Shown: positions 4,602 to 27,210 of the stretch, piece after piece | Layout: every line of letters starts with the position of its first letter | How positions within the stretch are numbered: position 1 is the first letter of the stretch | Assembly: GCA_041629275.1 (NCBI GenBank) | Contig: JBFKNO010000001.1 | Location: 1-39,673, forward strand | DNA from: Nitrospiraceae bacterium | GTDB lineage: Bacteria > Nitrospirota > Nitrospiria > Nitrospirales > Nitrospiraceae | DNA length: 39,673 nucleotides | Direction: 5' to 3' | Program-made: the position numbers and the translations under genes | Notes under the pieces: generated by a model | What the model saw: only the letters and a program-made list of their open reading frames with translations | Databases searched by the model: none | What the model was told of the DNA's origin: nothing

Positions 4602-5468
4602 ATGCGAATCGTGCGTCCGCCGAGGCCCTGGCGAATGCCGGCTACCTCGGCGGGCTCTGCCGGAGCTTTCATAGGCGTAGCGGCCGTGAAGCCCGCGGGC
4701 CCCATATTCTTGGTCGCTGCCCTCCTTGCACTGGCGACGGTGGCCTTTGGTTGCGCAGGCCCCCTGCGGCAATGGGGCGAGGAAGTCTCCCTCGTCTCCG
4801 TATCGCCTTCGTTTGATCCCCAGACGCTGACACGAGCTCGGGTGGTCGTACTGAACGGGGTCGTTGGGTTTGGCCTTGAGGGGTACGCGGTACAGGTGTC
4901 GCGCTCGTTGTCTCAGGTGCTGGGAGAAAACGATCTTGGCCTGAACGTGGGTCCCGCGCAACAAGCGATGAGCGACATTAATCAACAAGGACTTGCCTCC
5001 CCCTATGCGAGGATGATGAGCGAGTATATCCACAGCGGGATTCTCGACCGTGCCACGCTGGAGAAGATCGGCCACGCCGTGGGTGCCCGCTACATCGCGC
5101 TTCCGAGCATGGCAGCCTTCAGCCAAAGTGCCTCCGCGCGCTTGTCTTTCTTTGGCCTCCGGGTCTTTCAAACGAGGATCTCGATGCTGCGCCTATCCCT
5201 CCAGCTCTGGGATGCGCGATCTGGCGAGATCGTCTGGGAGGCGTCCGGAGAAGCAACGCTGGCAAACGAAGACATCCGGGAGTTCCGGATTCCCTTTGAA
5301 GATATTGCGCGACGGCTGTGGCGTCGTCTGCTGTTAGATCTGAAGCCCGCGGCGACGGAGAAAGAGGACGACCTCGGCCGGGCGAAAAACGGCCCTTGGA
5401 ATAGCGCTCGGGTCACAGCAGGTTTGCGTGAATGCGGGCTCGTCCAGTGCGGCACGTTAGCACGATGA
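4602..5468 (+). CDS. putative lipoprotein, function unknown
   Basis: The hydrophobic segment PIFLVAALLALATVAFGC ends in a lipobox-like AFGC. GGAGG lies just upstream of ATG 4602, but the spacing is short, so the start is uncertain. Confidence 0.55.
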   Translation: MRIVRPPRPWRMPATSAGSAGAFIGVAAVKPAGPIFLVAALLALATVAFGCAGPLRQWGEEVSLVSVSPSFDPQTLTRARVVVLNGVVGFGLEGYAVQVSRSLSQVLGENDLGLNVGPAQQAMSDINQQGLASPYARMMSEYIHSGILDRATLEKIGHAVGARYIALPSMAAFSQSASARLSFFGLRVFQTRISMLRLSLQLWDARSGEIVWEASGEATLANEDIREFRIPFEDIARRLWRRLLLDLKPAATEKEDDLGRAKNGPWNSARVTAGLRECGLVQCGTLAR

Positions 5469-6311
5469 AGCGCCTCCTGTTGTCCAACGTCCTCGTCGCA
5501 ACCATGCTATGCCGACAATCGCGAGGAGGAGCCCGGCCGCGTCGAGCCAGAGCGGATGGAACTGGATCGGATCCGTGACGAGCGAAAAGCCGGGAATGGA
5601 CGGAAAGGTGAAGGAGACGAGAAGGGGAAACCCGTTGACGGCGGCGTGGCCGATCAGGCAGGGAACCAGCGATCGAAGGGCGAGGTAAAACCATCCGAAC
5701 AGGAGACCGAGGACGAACGCGCCGAGGAATTGCCAGGGGTTCACATGGAACAGGGCGAAGAGCATCGCCGTGACGACCACGGCAGAGCCGGCGCCGAACC
5801 GGCTCAGGAGCCCGCGCAGAATCAGGCCGCGAAACAGGAGCTCCTCCGTGATCGGAGCAACGAGCATGAGAAGAAAGATTGAGCCGGGCAACTGGCGCCA
5901 GTCCCCCGTGAACATCCAGGAGAAGTCGAGGGCCTTGGGTGGCGGGCCGATGATCGTGTGCGACACGTTGTCGAGCTCGCTGACCAGGATTCCCACGCCG
6001 ATGACGCAGGAAAGAATGGGCGCGACCAGGATCGGAGGAATCGGGCGCAAGCGGAGCAGTGCGGAAGTGCCGCCCGCTCGCCGCCACGCGTAGAGGATCA
6101 CCGGGCTCAACGAGAGGAGGTTGACGAACCCCCACAGGGCTGGGACGCGCATCAGGCTTTCTTGGCCGCCAAAGACCAGGGTGAAGCTCGTCCCGATGAC
6201 GGCTTGGAGCACAATCGCCAGCAGGAGGAGCCCCACGGCCTGCAGCAAGTTCGGGTAGATCCTCGGCGATGGGGCCAGGTCAGGATCGCGAAACAGGGGC
6301 GCGTCGTTCAT
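5457..6311 (-). CDS. CPBP family intramembrane glutamic endopeptidase (CAAX protease/Abi family)
   Basis: It has EELLFRG, FALFH and HAAVN motifs in a polytopic membrane protein. It overlaps the convergent upstream gene by 12 nt. Confidence 0.8.
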   Translation of the reverse strand: MNDAPLFRDPDLAPSPRIYPNLLQAVGLLLLAIVLQAVIGTSFTLVFGGQESLMRVPALWGFVNLLSLSPVILYAWRRAGGTSALLRLRPIPPILVAPILSCVIGVGILVSELDNVSHTIIGPPPKALDFSWMFTGDWRQLPGSIFLLMLVAPITEELLFRGLILRGLLSRFGAGSAVVVTAMLFALFHVNPWQFLGAFVLGLLFGWFYLALRSLVPCLIGHAAVNGFPLLVSFTFPSIPGFSLVTDPIQFHPLWLDAAGLLLAIVGIAWLRRGRWTTGGASSC

Positions 6312-6336: not shown

Positions 6337-7137
6337 TCAGTGGGGGCGAGAAGCCCCGGAAAATGTGAGTGTCACCTCTCGGTTCTCACCCGAGCGGAGC
6401 GTCACGCTTGTCTCCTGGTACCCCAAAATGGGGTGCCACGCACCGATCGTGTGTCGGCCGGCGGGCACATCCGACAGCTCGAAGCGCCCGGTCTCGCCGG
6501 TCACGGTAAAGTACGGGTTTGCGGCGACCAGCACCCAGGACTGCATGAACCGGTGCTGATCGCATTCAAGCTTCACCACGCTGCTGCGCCGGATCTCGAG
6601 CGTATGCGACTGCTGTTGACCCACGGCGAAATGGGGTAAGTGAAACAGGGGTAGACGGCCTTTGCTCAGGACCTCCCAGCCGCGAATCTGATGGATGATC
6701 GCGTCGCGCATCTCGAGACGAAGGGGTTGCCCGTAGAGGCCGGCTGTGACAAAGGGCTCGAAACGGCACTGGTCGATGGTCACGAGAGGACCCGCGGCGG
6801 GAAACGGCTTTCCGCGCGGGACCTCCTGAATGAACACGACGACATCCGCCATCTCACGGCGAGCGGTCACCCTCGCTTGCGGCAGCGTGACATAACCGGC
6901 CTCGTCGGCGATCCGCTTGCAGAATTCGGGGTCGGAGCCCCGCGTGACCTTGAAGCGGAGGGGCTCCGGGACGGGACCCTCCAGCATCACGACCCCCGAA
7001 ACCGTGCCACCGTCCCGAACGGGTCCTTGCTCGTAGGGCAAGGTCAACCCGGTCGCGGTGAGCAGGACCACCAGAAGACCGATCACGATCGGGCTCGTCT
7101 TGGACGGCATTGCTGCGCGTGGAGATACATGTCGCAT
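6337..7137 (-). CDS. exported cupredoxin-like protein with carboxypeptidase-regulatory-like fold segments
   Basis: It has an N-terminal TM/signal (IVIGLLVVLLTATGL). CDQHRFM fits the amicyanin-type CxxHxxM copper-ligand pattern, with an upstream His in IIHQIRG. The C-terminus has GRFELSDVPAGRHTIGAWHPILG. Confidence 0.5.
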   Translation of the reverse strand: MRHVSPRAAMPSKTSPIVIGLLVVLLTATGLTLPYEQGPVRDGGTVSGVVMLEGPVPEPLRFKVTRGSDPEFCKRIADEAGYVTLPQARVTARREMADVVVFIQEVPRGKPFPAAGPLVTIDQCRFEPFVTAGLYGQPLRLEMRDAIIHQIRGWEVLSKGRLPLFHLPHFAVGQQQSHTLEIRRSSVVKLECDQHRFMQSWVLVAANPYFTVTGETGRFELSDVPAGRHTIGAWHPILGYQETSVTLRSGENREVTLTFSGASRPH

Positions 7138-7249
7138 CGGAATTTCACCTTACCTGTAGGAGCGGGACAAATGCAATGCCGCAGACGTGCAGCTTCAGCG
7201 CTCAGGTTCCAAGCTCAACGTTCTATTCTCTTTTTCGGTCCGTGAGCCT

Positions 7250-7555
7250 TCAGCTCGAGGTGTCTCCAAGGGTGATGCCCAGGTCCGCCAGTTTCCTCGC
7301 GAACCCCTCTGGCGTATTCAGCGTGTGCACGATGCTGCCATCGTCCCGGACATAGGAGATGACGCCCCCGTCTATGAGGGGCACGACCAGGACGCGGTCT
7401 CTGGCGTTTTGGCTGATGAACTCCCGCACCGTGGCCTGTCGGCCCAGCAGCGTCTCGAAGGAAAGTCGTCGATCCTCGTTCACCAGGACGGACCGCCCGG
7501 GGCAATTCGGGATGGCCCTCCACTGCCAGCGATCGTGGAGCTCCCTACGCGTCAT
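7250..7555 (-). CDS. hypothetical protein (101 aa)
   Basis: High third-position G+C supports coding. I saw no recognisable motif and only a weak RBS. It is divergent from the BLUF gene. Confidence 0.45.
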   Translation of the reverse strand: MTRRELHDRWQWRAIPNCPGRSVLVNEDRRLSFETLLGRQATVREFISQNARDRVLVVPLIDGGVISYVRDDGSIVHTLNTPEGFARKLADLGITLGDTSS

Positions 7556-7559
7556 CGGG

Positions 7560-7588
7560 TTGCACGCATCTCACGTCTCTGTTATCAA
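7560..7588 (+). promoter_or_regulatory. weak sigma70-like promoter candidate upstream of the BLUF gene
   Basis: TTGCAC, a 17-nt spacer, then TATCAA. The last position of the -10 is non-consensus. Confidence 0.25.
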
Positions 7589-7673
7589 GAAGAGGACTCG
7601 GCTCTCAAGACACAGGCACACGACTACCCGATTGCATGGTTTCCTGCCCGCAGTTCATGCGAGGAGAACGATC

Positions 7674-8558
7674 ATGATCCAGGTTTCGTACATCAGTTCG
7701 GCCACCAAAGCAATGTCGACGGACGACTTGCTCGTGCTGCTGCAGGAATGTCGAGAGCACAACGCGCCGCTTGGCATCACCGGCATGCTGCTCTACGGCA
7801 ATGCCACCTTCGTGCAGGTTCTGGAGGGGGAAGAGAAAGTTATCAATGATCTCCTCGCCAAAATACGGCGGGATCCTCGGCATTCAAATGTCCAGTTGCT
7901 CTCCCGGAAACAGATCGACCGGCGAGAGTATGCGGATTGGAGCATGGCGTTCAACCGCGTCTCAGGTGAGGAGCTCCAGTCCGTCGAGGGACTGCGCGAT
8001 TTTTACGAGAAGGACTTCACCCCCGACTACCTCGCTCAACACGGCAACGTCGTCCAGTCGCTCATGAATCATTTTCGAAAGGATCGACTCAAGGCCATCG
8101 GCCAGGAGGAGCTCTCGGTTGACCAGGAGGATCGGTTGATCAATCTGCTCCATCGCACCATCCGTGCCGCCGTGAGGGTGCTCGCTGTGTTGATGACGCT
8201 GACTATCCTCTGGGGCATCGTGGACGTGATTTATGTGATGTACGACAGGCTCGTGCGCCCATCGTTTGCCGAACTGGCGATCCGCGACATCATCACCACC
8301 TTCGGCGCCTTTTTGGCAGTGTTGATCGCCATTGAGATCTTCATCAACATCACGATGTACCTCCGGAGTGACGTCATCCATGTGAAGCTGGTGGTTGCGA
8401 CCGCGCTGATGGCGATCGCGCGAAAAGTCATCGTGTTTGATTTCAAGCAGTTGACGCCGCTCTATATCCTCGCCACGGCGGCAGTGGTGTTGGCATTGGG
8501 GCTCACCTATTGGCTGATCGAAAGAAGAATTTCCTGGGGGGAGCCTGATAGGCTATAG
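7674..8558 (+). CDS. BLUF (blue-light FAD sensor) domain fused to a PsiE-like 4-TM membrane domain
   Basis: GAGGAG lies 7 nt upstream of ATG 7674. BLUF hallmarks are Y6 (VSYISS), N30, Q48 (FVQVLEG) and W89/M91 (DWSMAF). The C-terminal ~140 aa has 4 hydrophobic helices with FLAVLIAIEIFINITMYLRSDVIHVKLVVATALMAIARKVIVFD, the pattern I recall for the PsiE family. Confidence 0.8.
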   Translation: MIQVSYISSATKAMSTDDLLVLLQECREHNAPLGITGMLLYGNATFVQVLEGEEKVINDLLAKIRRDPRHSNVQLLSRKQIDRREYADWSMAFNRVSGEELQSVEGLRDFYEKDFTPDYLAQHGNVVQSLMNHFRKDRLKAIGQEELSVDQEDRLINLLHRTIRAAVRVLAVLMTLTILWGIVDVIYVMYDRLVRPSFAELAIRDIITTFGAFLAVLIAIEIFINITMYLRSDVIHVKLVVATALMAIARKVIVFDFKQLTPLYILATAAVVLALGLTYWLIERRISWGEPDRL

Positions 8559-8648
8559 TGATAGACGTGGAGAGTGCGTGGACGCGCCGTTCGACCGCTG
8601 CTGGACATGCGGGACGGCCCGGCCGGAAGAGGCGGAAGGAAAGGAGAC

Positions 8649-8951
8649 ATGATGACACTGAACGTTGCACGAATCGCCACCCTGCTCACCCAGGCGGGAG
8701 CGGCGCATCACGAGTATGAGCAGACCCAACTCAAAGGCAAGACCGACAGCGCCTGGGCCGATTGGTACGCCGAGTTCCTGGTCAAGCATGGCGTGCAGGA
8801 CATCGTCGGAGCACAGGTCACGGCCCGACAGCTCAGCCAGGGCCTCATCCAGGCGACCGATTCCCACAAGAAGGAGCAGTCCGGCCTGGCGTGGGCCGAG
8901 TACGCGGCGACGAAGATCGCCGAGGTCTTCGCGACGGTGTCCAAGTCCTAG
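8649..8951 (+). CDS. hypothetical protein (100 aa)
   Basis: A strong RBS (GGAAAGGAGAC) sits directly before ATGATG at 8649. It contains an HHEYEQ...WADWYAEFL motif of an unknown family. It lies 90 nt downstream of the BLUF gene on the same strand. Confidence 0.55.
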   Translation: MMTLNVARIATLLTQAGAAHHEYEQTQLKGKTDSAWADWYAEFLVKHGVQDIVGAQVTARQLSQGLIQATDSHKKEQSGLAWAEYAATKIAEVFATVSKS

Positions 8952-8964
8952 CTCGCGGACGAAC

Positions 8965-8986
8965 GTTCCAGGTTTCAGGTTTCACC
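8965..8986. repeat. copy of the GTTCCAGGTTTCAGGTTTCACC intergenic repeat
   Basis: GTTCCAGGTTTCAGGTTTCACC lies 14 nt after the TAG at 8949-8951. A degenerate inverted partner follows (GGTTCCTGAGTCCTACGACCTGGGAC, about 8992-9017). Confidence 0.5.
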
Positions 8987-9034
8987 AGAATGGTTCCTGA
9001 GTCCTACGACCTGGGACGCTTCCCTCCCCTCTGC

Positions 9035-9610
9035 TCACTCCCGTTGATCGCGGCTCTCAACGAGCGCTTCCTGTAGCGCCTTCATACCCACGCCCCAGAT
9101 GCTGCGCGCCGCTCCCTGGTCGCGACCGTAGGCGGCGGTCAGGACCGTCAGGCTCCAGCCGGTGACACCCTGAACATGAAAAATGGTCGGATGGACCTCG
9201 AGCACCATGTCGAGGTGCAGGCGCCGCTCCAGGGTGTCGCTCGCCAGTTGCAGCAGCTCCGAGGTGCGGCGATTGAGAAAACCGGCCAGATCCATCAGGG
9301 TCATGTTCGTGTTGTGGGTGAGCCGGGCATAGCAGAGGGTGATGAAGGACGTGAGGGCCGTCCCGTGGTCGGGATGACTGACATGGGCAAAGGCTTGGTC
9401 GGCCGCCAGAGACATCAGTGGGGATTCTGCGGAGTTGATCGTGCGCAGCAGATCGCGCGTCTCGGGCCAGCCGATGCAAGGAGGTAGGACCGCGACCCAT
9501 TCGGGGTGGGTCTTCAGGTCTACGAAGTTCGATTCGGGCGTCCCATCGCTGTTGGGAATTCCGTAAGGGACGTGAAAGACCTCGTCACGCTGGGAGATTC
9601 GAATACCCAC
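9035..9610 (-). CDS. hypothetical protein (191 aa)
   Basis: The ORF has a GTG start and protein-like composition. I recognised no family and saw no clear RBS. Confidence 0.5.
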   Translation of the reverse strand: MGIRISQRDEVFHVPYGIPNSDGTPESNFVDLKTHPEWVAVLPPCIGWPETRDLLRTINSAESPLMSLAADQAFAHVSHPDHGTALTSFITLCYARLTHNTNMTLMDLAGFLNRRTSELLQLASDTLERRLHLDMVLEVHPTIFHVQGVTGWSLTVLTAAYGRDQGAARSIWGVGMKALQEALVESRDQRE

Positions 9611-22297: not shown

Positions 22298-23749
22298 CTA
22301 CCCCCGCCAGAACGCGGGGGTCAGCAGCGCCAGAAGCGTGAAGAGCTCCAGCCGGCCCAGCAGCATGGCCGTGCACAGGATCCACTTGCCCACGTCGGTG
22401 AGCCCGGCGTAGGTCGCGCTCACCTCCCCCAATCCCGGCCCCAGGTTGTTCAGGCAGGCGGTCACGGCGGAAAACGCCGTGATCAGATCCGTGCCGGTGG
22501 CGCTCATGGCCAAGGTGAGGAGAACGAAGCTCACCACGTAGAGCGAGAAGAAGCCCCAGATCGCGTTCATGATGCGGTCCTCGATGGGCTTGTCCCCGAT
22601 CTTGATGCTCAGGACGGCGTCGGGATGAATCAGGCGGCGCAGCTCACGCAGCCCCTGCTTGTAAAGCAGCAGGACGCGGATGACCTTCAGGCCGCCCGCC
22701 GTCGACCCCGCGCACCCGCCGATGAAGCTCGCCGCGAGGTAGAGGACGGGCAGGAAGACCGGCCAGGTGTGAAAGCCGGTGGTCGTGAACCCCGTCGTGG
22801 TCGCGATCGAGACGGCCTGGAACAGGCCGTGATCGACCACCGCGCCGATGTCGGGGAAGACCTTCAGCTCGTTCAACACGACAATGCTCAGGGTGCTCAC
22901 GACGAAGAGGACGCCGAGATAGGTCCGTACTTCGGGATCGCCGAGGTAGGGCAGCGGGCTTCTCGCGTGCCAGGCGTGGAAGTGCAGGGCGAAATTGATT
23001 CCGGCCAGCACCATGAAGACCACCGCGACGAGGTTGATCGTCCGGCTCTGAAAATAGCCGAGGCTCTGGTCATGGGTGGAGAAGCCCCCGATGGCGATGG
23101 TGGAGAAACTGTGCCCCACCGCATCGAACAGGCTCATGCCGGCCCACCAGTAGGCGAGGAAGCAGGCCACGGTGAGGCCCAGGTAGATGTACCAGAGGGC
23201 TTTGGCCGTCTGGGCGATGCGAGGTGTCAGCTTGGTTTCCTTGGCCGGCCCCGGCGTCTCGGCGCGGTACAGCTGCATGCCGCCGACCCCCAGCATCGGC
23301 ATGACCGCGACGGCCAGGACGACGATTCCCATGCCCCCGAGCCATTGGAGTTGCTGGCGGTAATAGCGGATGGACTCCGGCAGGTCGTCGATCCCCGACA
23401 GGACTGTGGCCCCGGTCGTGGTCAGGCCCGACATGGACTCAAAGAATGAATCGGTAAAGCCCATCACCGGCCGCTCCGAGGTCAGGAAGGGAAGCGCGCC
23501 AAAGAGCGCGAGGAGGGTCCAGAAGAGGGTCACGATCAGAAATCCCTCCCGGACGCGGATATCATCGCGGTTGCGGAGGACGGGAAGCCAGAGGAGGACG
23601 CCGGCGCCGAGCGTGATGCCGTAGGCGCTGACGAAGGCGGGTGCGGCGCCATCGTGAAAGTAGAGGGACAGGCCGATGGGCGGGAGCAGGGCCGTGCTGA
23701 AGACCGCCAGCAGGAGCCCCATGACGCGCTGGATCGCAGCGAACCGCAC
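22298..23749 (-). CDS. trkH: Trk-type potassium uptake protein TrkH
   Basis: It is a 483-aa polytopic protein with repeated pore-loop GLTTTG / TTTGFTTTG / GGFSTHD / GPGLGE signatures. It starts 12 nt after trkA. Confidence 0.9.
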   Translation of the reverse strand: MRFAAIQRVMGLLLAVFSTALLPPIGLSLYFHDGAAPAFVSAYGITLGAGVLLWLPVLRNRDDIRVREGFLIVTLFWTLLALFGALPFLTSERPVMGFTDSFFESMSGLTTTGATVLSGIDDLPESIRYYRQQLQWLGGMGIVVLAVAVMPMLGVGGMQLYRAETPGPAKETKLTPRIAQTAKALWYIYLGLTVACFLAYWWAGMSLFDAVGHSFSTIAIGGFSTHDQSLGYFQSRTINLVAVVFMVLAGINFALHFHAWHARSPLPYLGDPEVRTYLGVLFVVSTLSIVVLNELKVFPDIGAVVDHGLFQAVSIATTTGFTTTGFHTWPVFLPVLYLAASFIGGCAGSTAGGLKVIRVLLLYKQGLRELRRLIHPDAVLSIKIGDKPIEDRIMNAIWGFFSLYVVSFVLLTLAMSATGTDLITAFSAVTACLNNLGPGLGEVSATYAGLTDVGKWILCTAMLLGRLELFTLLALLTPAFWRG

Positions 23750-23760
23750 GGCTGTCGCCC

Positions 23761-25146
23761 TCAGGTCGCGGCCTTGAAGAGCCGCTCGACCTCTCCGAGG
23801 TGGCGTTTGTCGACGAGGAAGAGAATGATGTGATCTCCCTCCTGCACGATCGAGTCGTGGTGCGCCATGATGACCTCGTCACCACGCACGATCGCGCCGA
23901 TGGTCGTCCCCGGGGGCAGCTTGATGCGTGAGATCGTCCGCCCGACCAGCGAGGAGGTGCGGGGGCTGCCCGTGGCGATGCCCTCGATCGCCTCCGCCGC
24001 TCCGCGTCGCAGCGAGTGCACCGACGCCACCCGCCCGCCCCGCACGTGTGTGAGCAGCGTGCCGATCGTGGCCTGCTGGGGGGAGATGGCGATGTCGATC
24101 GTGCTCGCACCGTGCACCAGATCGACGTAGGCCGTGCGGTTGATCAGGGCCATCACTTTTCTCGCCCCCAAACGCTTGGCCATGAGGGCGGAGAGAATGT
24201 TGTCCTCGTCGTCATTCGTGAGCGCGCAGAAGGCGTCGATGGCCTCGATCCCCTCCCTCCGGAGCAGCTCCTCGTCCGTCGCGTCTCCGAGCAGGACGAT
24301 GCAGGTCCGGAGATCCTCCGACAGCATGCGAGCCCGATCCGGATTCAGCTCGATCAGCTTCACGTTGTAGTCGGCGTCCTCGAGGGCCAGCGCGAGCCGG
24401 TGGCCGATGTAGCCGCCGCCGGCGAGCAGGATCCGCTCCATGGGGCGCTCGAGCTTGCGCAGCTCGCTCAGCACGGCCTGGATGTTGGTCGGTGTCGCGA
24501 CGAAGAACACCTCGTCCCCGGCATGGATCACCGTGTCGCCTTCCGGAAGGATGGCGCGGTCGTGCCGATAGATCGCCGCCACCCGCGCCTCGATGCCAGG
24601 CAAGTGCTCGGCGAGGTCGCGCAACTGGTGACCGACCAGCGGCCCGCCGTGATACGCTTTGACCGCGACGAGCTCCACCCTGCCCTGGGCGAAGTCCAAA
24701 ACCTGGAACGCCGTCGGATACTCGATGAGGCGCTTGATGTAGCTCGCGACGATCTGGTCCGGGCTGATGATCACGTCGATCGGAATGCCCTTCTCGGAAA
24801 ACAGCTCGGCCGTGGCGAGGTACTCGGCGGCGCGAATGCGGGCGATCTTCGTCGGGGTGTGAAAGAGCAGCCAAGTGATCTGGCAGGCGGTGATGTTGAC
24901 CTCGTCGCTGTCGGTGACGGCCAGAATGATGTCGGCCTGCGGCGCGTTGGCCTGCCGCAGCGTCTTGGGGAAGGCCCCGTTGCCGAGGACGGTGCGGATG
25001 TCGAGCCGGTTCTGAAGCTCCTGCAAAGGGCCCGGATGCGTGTCCACGACCGTGACGTCGTTGCCCTCTCGGACGAGCGCCTCGGCGACCGAGGTGCCGA
25101 CCCGCCCGGCGCCCAGGATGATGATTTGCTTGCTCGATTGCGGCAT
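23761..25146 (-). CDS. trkA: Trk system NAD-binding component TrkA
   Basis: It has two RCK_N Rossmann motifs (IIILGAGRVG and ILLAGGGYIGHRLA) plus RCK_C segments. Size is 461 aa. Confidence 0.9.
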   Translation of the reverse strand: MPQSSKQIIILGAGRVGTSVAEALVREGNDVTVVDTHPGPLQELQNRLDIRTVLGNGAFPKTLRQANAPQADIILAVTDSDEVNITACQITWLLFHTPTKIARIRAAEYLATAELFSEKGIPIDVIISPDQIVASYIKRLIEYPTAFQVLDFAQGRVELVAVKAYHGGPLVGHQLRDLAEHLPGIEARVAAIYRHDRAILPEGDTVIHAGDEVFFVATPTNIQAVLSELRKLERPMERILLAGGGYIGHRLALALEDADYNVKLIELNPDRARMLSEDLRTCIVLLGDATDEELLRREGIEAIDAFCALTNDDEDNILSALMAKRLGARKVMALINRTAYVDLVHGASTIDIAISPQQATIGTLLTHVRGGRVASVHSLRRGAAEAIEGIATGSPRTSSLVGRTISRIKLPPGTTIGAIVRGDEVIMAHHDSIVQEGDHIILFLVDKRHLGEVERLFKAAT

Positions 25147-25316: not shown

Positions 25317-26315
25317 TCACACCCTCGCGAACCAGAACGGAAACTTCAGCTTGGCCGTGAGCCGAGCGAGACGAGCGGATAGGGGAAGCCGGCGGGGTTT
25401 GTTGGCGCGGGGGACGGCTCGTCGGTCATGAGGGCGACGTTCCGCCCGCTCCTCAACGGACGTGAGCGGCTCGGTACTCGCCGAGGGATACCCCTCGTCG
25501 TGGTCGACATCTGCTTCCTGGGTTGGGACGCCCTGGGGCGCGCTGTCGTCGGATTCGAGCTGCGTCGGCGGGTGCGCCATCACCTCGTGTTGCGAATGGC
25601 GCCGTGAGGAGGATTCGGTGGAGCGTGAGTGTGCCGTGTGAGATTCACGGAGCAGGGTTTGAATGAACTGGGTGCAGGCTTTGAATTCCGTGAACTCGAG
25701 CATCGGCGGCGCCGGCAACGGCTCCCCCTGCTCGAAGGCCTGCCGCGCATCCAGGATCCAGCCGACGAAGGCCGAGAGGTCCTGGGGTGGGATCGCCACG
25801 GGATTGCCCAGGCAGCTGTTCCCCACGGGAGGATCCGGATTGGGCGGCACAAAACCTCCCTCAAACGCCGAGGCGGCCCAGAGCGGACTTACCATGACCG
25901 ATGGCGATCGCTTGGGGGGAGCGGGCTCGAGCCTGTGTCGGCCACGCCTCGCGCGGGCGAGCTGCATGTAACTGTCATCCAGGAACCGGCGCAGCCGCTT
26001 CTGCGTGTCGACGGACATTTCGACGATCTTCAACCCGAAATGGCTGCCTTGCACCCACTGGACCAGCGCTAATTGGACCTCCAAGGGTTCGTCCATCTCC
26101 GGCAGGTCGATACGGCAGGAAAGCATCGAAGCCGGATGCGGGGAACGATCCGACTCCACCAGACAGCCATGCATGGAGATGTCCTTGACGGTGCCCCCTT
26201 GGGTGGCGAAGCCGACCGAATACACGATGTTGCCCTCGATCGGGATACGTATCTCCTTGCGGGGCATCTGGGCCATAGTCGTCTCGCAGCAAAACCGTCG
26301 CGTTGCTTCAACCAT
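25317..26315 (-). CDS. PilZ domain protein with long low-complexity C-terminal region
   Basis: PRKEIRIPIEG (RxxxR) and VKDISMHGCLV (DxSxxG) are present. Alternative starts are at 26276 and 26267 (MAQMPRKE). The remaining ~215 aa have no recognisable domain. Confidence 0.7.
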   Translation of the reverse strand: MVEATRRFCCETTMAQMPRKEIRIPIEGNIVYSVGFATQGGTVKDISMHGCLVESDRSPHPASMLSCRIDLPEMDEPLEVQLALVQWVQGSHFGLKIVEMSVDTQKRLRRFLDDSYMQLARARRGRHRLEPAPPKRSPSVMVSPLWAASAFEGGFVPPNPDPPVGNSCLGNPVAIPPQDLSAFVGWILDARQAFEQGEPLPAPPMLEFTEFKACTQFIQTLLRESHTAHSRSTESSSRRHSQHEVMAHPPTQLESDDSAPQGVPTQEADVDHDEGYPSASTEPLTSVEERAERRPHDRRAVPRANKPRRLPLSARLARLTAKLKFPFWFARV

Positions 26316-26619: not shown

Positions 26620-27210
26620 ATGAGTCGACACACAACCTGGGGCATCGTCCTCATCCTTGTCGGGATCATGACCGCCGCGGGGTACTGGGCGCTGCTCTTC
26701 CCGACGCCGCCATCCGCGACGCAGGTCGACATCTCGGCGAGCCGTGCCGCGGACTTCGTCCACGCCGTCGTTGACGCGAACCGAACCGTCTACCAGGCGA
26801 ATGTGGTGGATCATCTCGAAGTGAAGGGCGTCGTCCGTGCCACACGCGAGTGGCAGGGCAGCGGCGGCCTGCCCCTCCCCGACCAGTTCGTGCTCGCGAC
26901 CGGCCGCGTCGCCGAAGCGAACGGAATCCGCTATCGCCTGGCCAGCCTCCAGCCGCTCAACGAGAGTAACGCGCCGCAGACCGAGTTCGAACGGCGTGGG
27001 CTGGATGCCGTTCGGCGCAATCCGAGCACGCCCTACACGGGCGTGGTCACCCTGGAGGGAAGGCCCCACTTTCAGGCGATCTATGCGGAGGTCGCGACCG
27101 CGCAGCGCTGCGTCGGCTGCCACACCGACCTGGCCGGTAAGTCAGCCATGCCCTACAAGGTGGGTGACGTGCTGGGCGGCCTCATCATCACCTTTCCCCT
27201 TGCCGACTAG
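26620..27210 (+). CDS. membrane-anchored DUF3365 (Tll0287-like) c-type heme domain protein
   Basis: It has an N-terminal TM (WGIVLILVGIMTAAGYWALLF). The CVGCH (CxxCH) heme-c motif is near the C-terminus. The LPLPDQF and GLIITFPL context is as I recall for DUF3365. Confidence 0.7.
   Translation: MSRHTTWGIVLILVGIMTAAGYWALLFPTPPSATQVDISASRAADFVHAVVDANRTVYQANVVDHLEVKGVVRATREWQGSGGLPLPDQFVLATGRVAEANGIRYRLASLQPLNESNAPQTEFERRGLDAVRRNPSTPYTGVVTLEGRPHFQAIYAEVATAQRCVGCHTDLAGKSAMPYKVGDVLGGLIITFPLAD

Follow-up and report, generated by a model that had tools for sequence, protein, structure and literature searches.

What does a light sensor control when it is built into a membrane protein? The question is raised by a gene of a Nitrospiraceae bacterium (NCBI GenBank assembly GCA_041629275.1, contig JBFKNO010000001.1, positions 1 to 39,673; this whole stretch of 39,673 nucleotides is the window referred to below), which lies at positions 7674..8558 of the forward strand and encodes a protein that joins a BLUF domain to a membrane module of the PsiE (phosphate-starvation-inducible E) family. 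We tentatively read this protein, BLUF-PsiE, as a one-component membrane photoreceptor in which light would control a PsiE module linked to cation homeostasis, a reading that we favor with considerable reserve as a whole and whose parts differ in strength.

Architecture and distribution of BLUF-PsiE

The open reading frame (ORF) runs uninterrupted from an ATG at 7674 to a TAG at 8556-8558 and forms a complete coding sequence for 294 amino acids plus the stop (7674..8558, forward strand), as defined from the ORF list, the sequence itself and the start sites of orthologues. All of the best 120 database matches are two-domain BLUF+PsiE proteins of ~294 amino acids, and full-length BLUF-PsiE is found in 79 of 80 species genomes, some of them complete chromosomes (Methylomicrobium, Methylotuvimicrobium); these 80 loci were kept from 456 relatives recovered by a scan of one genome per species, and they are the basis of the counts out of 80 given for BLUF-PsiE below. 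A preliminary description of the locus, made from the sequence alone, had treated the BLUF and membrane parts as one gene, and the continuous frame and the recurrence of the same architecture bear this out.

The BLUF core (residues 1-95; 7674..7958, forward strand) is predicted to bind flavin adenine dinucleotide (FAD), as judged from Pfam, alignments, AlphaFold and Foldseek. The Pfam search proposed as a check in the preliminary description gave a full-length match of residues 1-92 to the BLUF profile PF04940 (positions 1-92 of 92; E-value 2.7e-31, 108 bits against a cut-off of 25). The five canonical photocycle residues that had been picked out by eye, Y6, N30, Q48, W89 and M91, all pair in HMMER alignments with their counterparts in TePixD (1x0p; Y8, N32, Q50, W91 and M93), and four of them, Y6, Q48, W89 and M91, pair with Y21, Q63, W104 and M106 of AppA (2iyg). 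Each of the five is at least 97% invariant among the 79 full-length BLUF-PsiE orthologues that we aligned for conservation. Structurally, the AlphaFold model of the core has the ferredoxin-like beta-alpha-beta-beta-alpha-beta-beta fold of BLUF domains, with strands at residues 2-10, 36-42, 45-52, 70-80 and 92-95 and helices at 16-33 and 54-66 (predicted local distance difference test, pLDDT, 80-88), and its Foldseek matches to TePixD (E 3.4e-10), AppA, PixD and BlrB span E-values from 1e-8 to 3e-10.

Residues 96-145 (7959..8108, forward strand) form a helical cap that Foldseek, the models and conservation equate with the C-terminal helices of PixD-type short BLUF proteins. Cap helices are predicted at residues 98-101, 117-122 and 124-145, the motifs HFRK and IGxxEL are conserved, and residues 1 to ~145 cover 136-145 columns of the PixD, TePixD and BlrB chains (139-147 residues) and the whole chain of BlsA as well. 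The two cap helices typical of short BLUF proteins are thus present in the model, at moderate confidence (pLDDT 65-89). The preliminary description had seen a linker of ~60 amino acids here; such a stretch exists, but as a conserved, helical region equivalent to the PixD-type cap rather than as a loose linker. Together, the models strongly support residues 1-145 as a predicted complete PixD-type short BLUF protein, consisting of a BLUF core and two cap helices, and to judge from the sequence BLUF-PsiE is very probably a genuine flavin photoreceptor.

The BLUF unit meets the PsiE unit at an acidic hinge, QEELSVDQ (residues 146-153; 8109..8132, forward strand), placed by models and conservation. 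This is the lowest-confidence and only non-helical stretch in both AlphaFold models; its E146 and L147 are at least 97% invariant, as is H160 in the juxtamembrane helix beyond it, and I163 is also invariant. Stand-alone PsiE relatives mostly start aligning within residues 144-155, and one that is coupled to a K+ channel gene aligns from residue 150.

The PsiE-family membrane module itself (residues 154-288; 8133..8537, forward strand), assigned from Pfam and AlphaFold, comprises a juxtamembrane helix that leads into the first transmembrane helix (TM1), followed by TM2, TM3 and TM4. Pfam PsiE (PF06146) matches residues 166-285 nearly end to end (profile positions 2-120 of 122; E-value 1.2e-36, 126 bits against a cut-off of 23.9), in agreement with the earlier assignment of the C-terminal half to PsiE, for which a consensus-like string, IAIEIFINITMYLRSDVIHVKLVVATALMAIARKVIVFD, had been quoted that corresponds to residues 218-256. 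Hydropathy and AlphaFold concur on four membrane helices (~166-190, 205-232, 237-254 and 262-288), the same number of hydrophobic helices as first reported. On the forward strand, TM1 (8169..8243) contains D184; TM2 (8286..8369) contains E221, N225 and Y229, spaced four apart, with R231 at the helix end; TM3 (8382..8435) contains T243, R250 and K251, with D256 just past the helix; and TM4 (8457..8537) contains Y279 and W280. These assignments draw on hydropathy, model and conservation for TM1, TM2 and TM4, and on model and conservation for TM3. A first AlphaFold run on the full-length protein used 18 similar sequences and gave a pLDDT of ~50 in the PsiE part; a rerun of residues 95-294 with an alignment of 83 diverse sequences reached a mean pLDDT of 84.7, and in it a single long helix (residues 154-194, pLDDT 90-97) continues straight into TM1. 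In its predicted architecture, the protein reads as a short BLUF protein joined head-to-tail with a whole PsiE protein.

The survey of genomes confirmed that this architecture is widespread, as 79 of the 80 kept loci are full length, with 46-89% identity to the window protein. Among the hosts are Nitrospirota (with Ca. Nitrospira neomarina and allomarina), Nitrospinota, Chromatiaceae, Methylococcaceae (e.g., Methylotuvimicrobium buryatense 5G, locus L069), a Cyclobacteriaceae metagenome-assembled genome (MAG), and phototrophic Alphaproteobacteria of the genera Rhodoplanes, Rhodopila, Rhodoblastus, Rhodospira and Rhodomicrobium. The closest relative of the window gene is an 89% identical orthologue in another Nitrospiraceae MAG (L001); the Lamprocystis purpurea DSM 4197 protein (locus L016) is 69% identical over residues 1-293, and a Thioflavicoccus protein (P0120) is 67% identical. 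An identity of ~70% between Nitrospirota and Proteobacteria BLUF-PsiE is unusually high. Two MAGs labelled Actinomycetes/Actinomycetota (L021 and L025) carry proteobacteria-like BLUF-PsiE, 70% identical to that of the window, which suggests mis-binning or horizontal transfer.

The combination has also been catalogued before: a supplement (file 3) of Losi, Mandalari and Gaertner 2014 lists 'BLUF+PsiE' for Lamprocystis purpurea (295 amino acids), Methylobacter marinus and Thioflavicoccus mobilis (293 amino acids; PMC4844311). The window protein fits this catalogued architecture of ~290 amino acids, and both of its domains are annotated by Pfam and NCBI, the latter naming such proteins 'PsiE family' or 'BLUF domain-containing'. 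Our literature search found no paper that characterizes BLUF-PsiE or treats BLUF with PsiE in its main text. BLUF-PsiE has thus been catalogued since 2014 and left unstudied; the preliminary description was right to call the type uncharacterized, but it is neither unrecorded nor undiscovered.

Conservation and relatives of the membrane module

Evolutionarily, the orthologue alignment shows the predicted membrane module to be under stronger constraint than the sensor, with mean conservation of 0.90 in TM3 and 0.88 in TM2 against 0.68 in the BLUF core and 0.57 in the cap. Eleven of its residues are at least 97% invariant (D184, E221, N225, Y229, R231, T243, R250, K251, D256, Y279 and W280), and E221, N225 and Y229 are nearly invariant in stand-alone PsiE proteins too. 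Residues 150-288 are free of insertions and deletions, bar one single-residue insertion after residue 194 in one of the 79 orthologues, and the predicted helical connection between BLUF and PsiE is rigid and hardly varies in length.

Searched exhaustively with HMMER, residues 95-294 returned 1226 cluster representatives, many of them stand-alone proteins of 150-200 amino acids that are 45-62% identical to the module, and a word-indexed search with one stand-alone PsiE protein returned 4964 clusters. Stand-alone members of the same subfamily (e.g., L098:4001-4465, P0126 and P0338) share 45-69% identity with it over the whole module, juxtamembrane helix and all conserved polar residues included, and in place of a sensor domain they have only a short and variable N-terminus. 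Because such proteins, 150-175 amino acids long, are abundant, the module would work on its own, with the BLUF unit added in front. Among ten longer proteins scanned from the representative search, the module was preceded by BLUF or by nothing, and no other sensor domain was seen. A sequence search of the PDB found BLUF chains only, plus a chance-level acylphosphatase match within the BLUF region (E 0.58).

The preliminary description had called the module PsiE-like, which holds at the level of the Pfam family but not as orthology to E. coli PsiE. That orthology, tried as a candidate assignment, was rejected: the NCBIfam equivalog for E. coli PsiE (NF002763) scores 16 bits against a cut-off of 138, and BLASTP barely detects the E. 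coli protein (22 bits, 35% identity over 62 amino acids).

The conservation pattern bears on whether PsiE acts or merely holds. In the first alternative, PsiE would only anchor or oligomerize a membrane-tethered short BLUF protein, and the light signal would leave through contact of the BLUF core and cap with a separate partner. Short BLUF proteins are known for such light-dependent protein-protein contacts (PixD with PixE, PapB with PapA, and BlsA with its partners), and residues 1-145 resemble a complete PixD-type protein, a class that signals by partner binding. PsiE, moreover, has no recorded output activity, and for GsGCS, the globin-PsiE protein of Geobacter sulfurreducens, the authors favored localization and oligomerization as the role of the PsiE domain (PMC8076648). 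An anchor should evolve fast, however, yet TM2 and TM3 are the most conserved parts of the protein, with polar and charged residues conserved in the helices or at their ends; stand-alone proteins, with no sensor in need of an anchor, reach 45-69% identity to the module; and no conserved candidate partner gene lies beside BLUF-PsiE in the 80 loci. We consider pure tethering unlikely, although it deserves serious attention. Since TM2 and TM3 are so conserved, since polar residues are conserved within the helices or at their ends, and since the stand-alone homologues are autonomous, the PsiE module is probably a regulated effector rather than a passive anchor.

Gene neighborhoods

Stand-alone PsiE genes, unlike BLUF-PsiE, often lie beside genes for cation channels or transporters or for histidine kinases. 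On assembled contigs, ten stand-alone PsiE genes were inspected, and eight of them have a cation-transport gene adjacent or one gene away. P-type cation ATPases account for four cases, two of which come from one lineage. Other neighbors are a Na/Ca exchanger, which lies 50 nt upstream, a gene with Kef-type Na_H_Exchanger and TrkA_N domains 25 nt downstream that is followed by CorA, and, at 31 nt upstream, a gene whose product has an MscS C-terminal domain; three look-ups fell on contigs of 1-1.4 kb, one of which showed an upstream MscS-domain gene. At L098:3659-4465 (also in L099 and L100), PsiE follows a pore-only K+ channel of 112 amino acids with two membrane helices, a TTVGYGD filter and a Pfam Ion_trans_2 match. 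The stop codon of this KcsA-like channel is 3 nt from the PsiE start in L098, where the PsiE protein is 69% identical to the window module over 136 amino acids, and the channel pore and PsiE look like a translationally coupled two-gene unit.

A search of plasmids with the PsiE module returned only three records. On plasmid NZ_CP151407.1 of Azonexus hydrophilus (L105:4031-6344), nhaR, a PsiE-family gene and an MscS-family channel gene stand in a tight same-strand row, nhaR and psiE overlapping by 14 nt and psiE lying 15 nt from the channel gene; nhaR encodes a Na+-responsive regulator. In the heat-resistance islands of enterobacteria, a KefB-like pump is listed together with a PsiE-family protein (PMC5347186, PMC7010813); that PsiE is too distant to be detected by the module search, and its adjacency to KefB rests on the gene lists of these papers.

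For a systematic comparison, we used ATALMAIARK, a family-wide signature in TM3, to scan a metagenome collection, and set 80 loci of the stand-alone subfamily against 80 BLUF-PsiE loci, a control with more flanking sequence. A P-type cation ATPase, Kef-type antiporter or Na/Ca exchanger lies within 4 kb in 10 of the 80 stand-alone loci versus 1 of the 80 BLUF-PsiE loci (Fisher p = 0.009); for stand-alone loci flanked by 2 kb or more on each side, the count is 6 of 27. The ten transporter neighbors are mostly 33-343 nt away, mostly on the same strand, and represent at least seven clusters at 85% identity. The association between stand-alone PsiE and cation transporters is real but partial.

The same neighborhoods suggest a second alternative, in which PsiE would be a membrane transducer to a histidine kinase or another membrane signaling protein, so that light would be fed into a phosphorelay. 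In three of the first ten stand-alone cases, on unrelated contigs, a histidine kinase gene precedes PsiE by 13-72 nt; a similar kinase occurs within 4 kb in 7 of the 80 metagenome loci, and HATPase_c is among the commoner neighbor families. Such a kinase is near only 1 of the 80 BLUF-PsiE loci, however, kinase adjacency is no commoner than transporter adjacency (the two occur together in L090-L092), and no response regulator is consistently present; we regard a relay of this kind as improbable. The kinases seen (L085:2975-3988, L090:2823-3938 and L101:2865-3929) have 337-371 amino acids and one to three hydrophobic N-terminal segments.

Around BLUF-PsiE genes, neither de novo clustering of neighbors in the 80 loci nor a Pfam scan of 150 immediate neighbors revealed a universal operon partner. 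The recurrent neighbors are light-related and are present in a minority of loci only: 14 of the 80 have a same-strand photolyase gene no more than 3 kb away, and 11 have a gene resembling MerR + B12-binding regulators of the CarH/LitR type within 6 kb, directly adjacent in four, with the MerR+B12 domain architecture confirmed by Pfam for three of these neighbors. A second BLUF gene is the immediate neighbor in four loci, and DUF427, DCC1-like and 2-thiouracil desulfurase genes also recur. In L033, from a Nitrospirales MAG, this second BLUF gene proved to be a tandem BLUF-PsiE paralogue (L033:6001-6876 and L033:7104-8042), the second copy being 61% identical to the window protein. Also in Nitrospirales, a conserved same-strand block stands upstream of BLUF-PsiE and photolyase (L004:1593-5069, with equivalents in L005, L008, L011 and L012) and encodes a CarH/LitR-like MerR+B12 regulator, a CbiX-like protein, an amine-oxidase-like fragment and a protein of 221 amino acids that has a membrane helix at its C-terminus and matches no Pfam family; this block looks like a light-response gene cluster.

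Such company bears on a third alternative, in which BLUF would serve mainly as a sensor of redox or flavin status and inform the membrane module of the redox state of the cytoplasm. A number of hosts, Nitrospira of sand filters or sediments for one, live mostly in the dark, and the globin-PsiE relatives sense gas or redox state. Yet no photocycle-specific residue falls below 97% invariance, the recurrent neighbors are photolyase and B12-dependent light regulators, and many hosts are phototrophic, so we give this alternative very little credence. Last, the idea that a short BLUF gene and a separate PsiE gene were merged by a sequencing or assembly error is practically excluded by the continuous reading frame and by the recurrence of architecture and length in the 120 best matches and in 79 species genomes.

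Within the window, the BLUF-PsiE frame is open upstream to an ATG at 7359, and the extension so gained (7359-7673) overlaps the divergent ORF at 7250-7555; orthologues begin with MIQ at the equivalent of ATG-7674, save for some database entries, e.g., P0037 (370 amino acids) and P0107, whose type of N-terminal extension is best regarded as spurious. A Shine-Dalgarno-like GAGGAG (7661..7666, forward strand), read off the sequence with a 7-nt spacer to the ATG, corresponds to the good ribosome-binding site credited to the gene at the outset. A promoter scan of 7100-9100 gave no sigma-70-like site, and no convincing intergenic terminator was found. The two ORFs of ~100 amino acids that flank the gene, 7250-7555 (reverse strand) and 8649-8951 (forward strand), exist as first described and have no Pfam, NCBIfam or PDB sequence match. 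Their suggested role as partners was rejected: by tblastn they are conserved in L001 only, at 74% and 83% identity, and were not found in the other 79 of the 80 loci.

The ~30 genes scanned with Pfam, out of ~42 likely ones in the window, have ordinary housekeeping content. Upstream of BLUF-PsiE lie a CPBP/Rce1-like intramembrane protease gene (5457-6311, reverse strand) and a gene with a sub-threshold carboxypeptidase-regulatory-like match (6337-7137, reverse strand; 25 bits against a cut-off of 32.3); both genes are conserved in L001, and L052 has a weak match to the second. The K+ uptake proteins TrkH (319 bits) and TrkA (two TrkA_N/TrkA_C pairs) are encoded at 22298-25146 (reverse strand), ~14 kb from BLUF-PsiE and with no link to it. 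A PilZ-domain protein (25317-26315, reverse strand) and a Tll0287-like protein (26620-27210, forward strand) may be signaling proteins.

A proposed mechanism and its place among known systems

In our reading of BLUF-PsiE as a light-controlled membrane photoreceptor, the BLUF unit would be cytoplasmic and both termini would lie inside the cell, as the topology suggests, because the flavin cofactor is needed and there is no signal peptide. In AppA, PixD and OaPAC, BLUF photochemistry consists of electron and proton transfer from a tyrosine to the flavin, rearrangement of a glutamine and a shift of strand beta-5. By analogy with these proteins, blue light would drive electron and proton transfer from Y6 to FAD, after which Q48 would rearrange and strand beta-5, with W89 and M91, would shift and reposition the cap helices; through the hinge and the juxtamembrane helix, this movement would alter the conformation or the oligomer packing of PsiE. 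The least certain step is the output, which would be a change in cation or proton flux, by conduction through PsiE itself or via a partner channel or transporter, and which would belong to a light or photo-oxidative stress response. Cation or proton homeostasis is proposed as the field of action because of the genomic neighbors of the stand-alone homologues, the weakest step of the argument, and we put it forward as a possible but rather doubtful output. A bolder form, in which BLUF-PsiE would be a natural flavin-based light-gated ion pathway, with PsiE (probably a tetramer) conducting cations or protons or directly gating a partner K+ channel and BLUF opening or closing it, seems to us a long shot.

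Several observations weigh against this reading. From a genomic perspective, the transporter link covers only ~12-22% of stand-alone loci and is missing around the BLUF-PsiE genes themselves (1/80), including that of the window, which has no adjacent transporter; some of the linked loci share lineages, either with one another or with the first ten, so they are not fully independent; and histidine kinases, Usp proteins and ABC ATPases are found beside stand-alone genes too, a mixture that suits regulation or stress as readily as ion conduction. Nowhere did the window show similarity to the photolyase or MerR+B12 neighbor genes, nor did Pfam detect any in the genes scanned there. Structurally, the full-length AlphaFold model, and with it the packing of the BLUF unit against the PsiE module, is only of moderate confidence (pLDDT 65), and a Foldseek search of the confident PsiE-module model against the PDB gave nothing below E = 1 (best 1.4, TM-score <0.4). 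Because no solved structure resembles the module, its fold offers no functional hint, and we know of no biochemical activity on record for any member of the PsiE family. A voltage-sensor-like or known channel fold was accordingly rejected as a homology claim; this lack of channel likeness in the PDB lowers the chance that PsiE belongs to a known channel family, not that it acts on ion flux.

BLUF photoreceptors are textbook soluble sensors, and the metabolism of nitrite oxidizers (Nitrospira, Nitrospina), methanotrophs (Methylococcaceae) and purple bacteria is light-sensitive. A conserved and widespread BLUF protein built into the membrane, and present in these ecologically weighty groups, is a blind spot of photobiology; the 2014 survey describes LOV and BLUF proteins as 'non-membrane' (PMC4844311). 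The built-in light switch also offers an experimental handle on the output of the PsiE family, which could be turned on and off at will, and the recurrence of cation transporters beside stand-alone PsiE is a new lead that gives this output a concrete hypothesis. If the module affects ion flux, BLUF-PsiE would be a candidate for a small, genetically encoded, flavin-based optogenetic tool, and if the light-gated ion pathway were true, it would be the first natural non-rhodopsin light-gated ion conductance and would reveal the activity of PsiE.

Among known systems, the short BLUF proteins PixD and TePixD (Slr1694 and Tll0078), BlrB and BlsA share with BLUF-PsiE the core, identical photocycle residues and the cap helices, TePixD being the best match both by sequence (E 9.6e-18) and by structure. 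They are soluble and act via separate partners, whereas the corresponding unit of BLUF-PsiE continues covalently into a four-helix membrane module. AppA, the EAL proteins BlrP1/YcgF and the cyclases bPAC/OaPAC have the same sensor, and beta-5 and C-terminal helices pass the signal to an effector; these effectors are soluble enzymes or anti-repressors with known outputs, but that of BLUF-PsiE is membrane-embedded. Channelrhodopsins, which are retinal-based, and BLINK1, a man-made fusion of LOV and a K+ channel, would be functional analogues without homology, if PsiE conducts or gates ions, and we know of no natural flavin-gated channel. On the membrane side, E. coli PsiE, a member of the Pho regulon, shares PF06146 and the four membrane helices and, judging from sequence, also the Glu of helix 2 and the Arg and Asp of helix 3, of which the BLASTP alignment, limited to helices 3-4, covers R250 and D256. 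Nothing about BLUF-PsiE points to phosphate control.

GsGCS, the one sensor-PsiE fusion to have been studied and here compared by description rather than by sequence, resembles BLUF-PsiE in overall plan: a cytoplasmic, cofactor-binding sensor at the N-terminus is followed by a helical linker and then by a four-helix PsiE domain at the C-terminus. Its transmembrane domain drives tetramerization, 168 such globin + PsiE proteins have been reported, and its authors suggested localization or perhaps proton transport for the PsiE domain (PMC8076648). BLUF-PsiE likewise carries an N-terminal cofactor-binding sensor followed by a C-terminal PsiE module in one chain, and the two differ in what they would sense, GsGCS using a haem globin for gas or redox state and BLUF-PsiE a flavin sensor of the light type.

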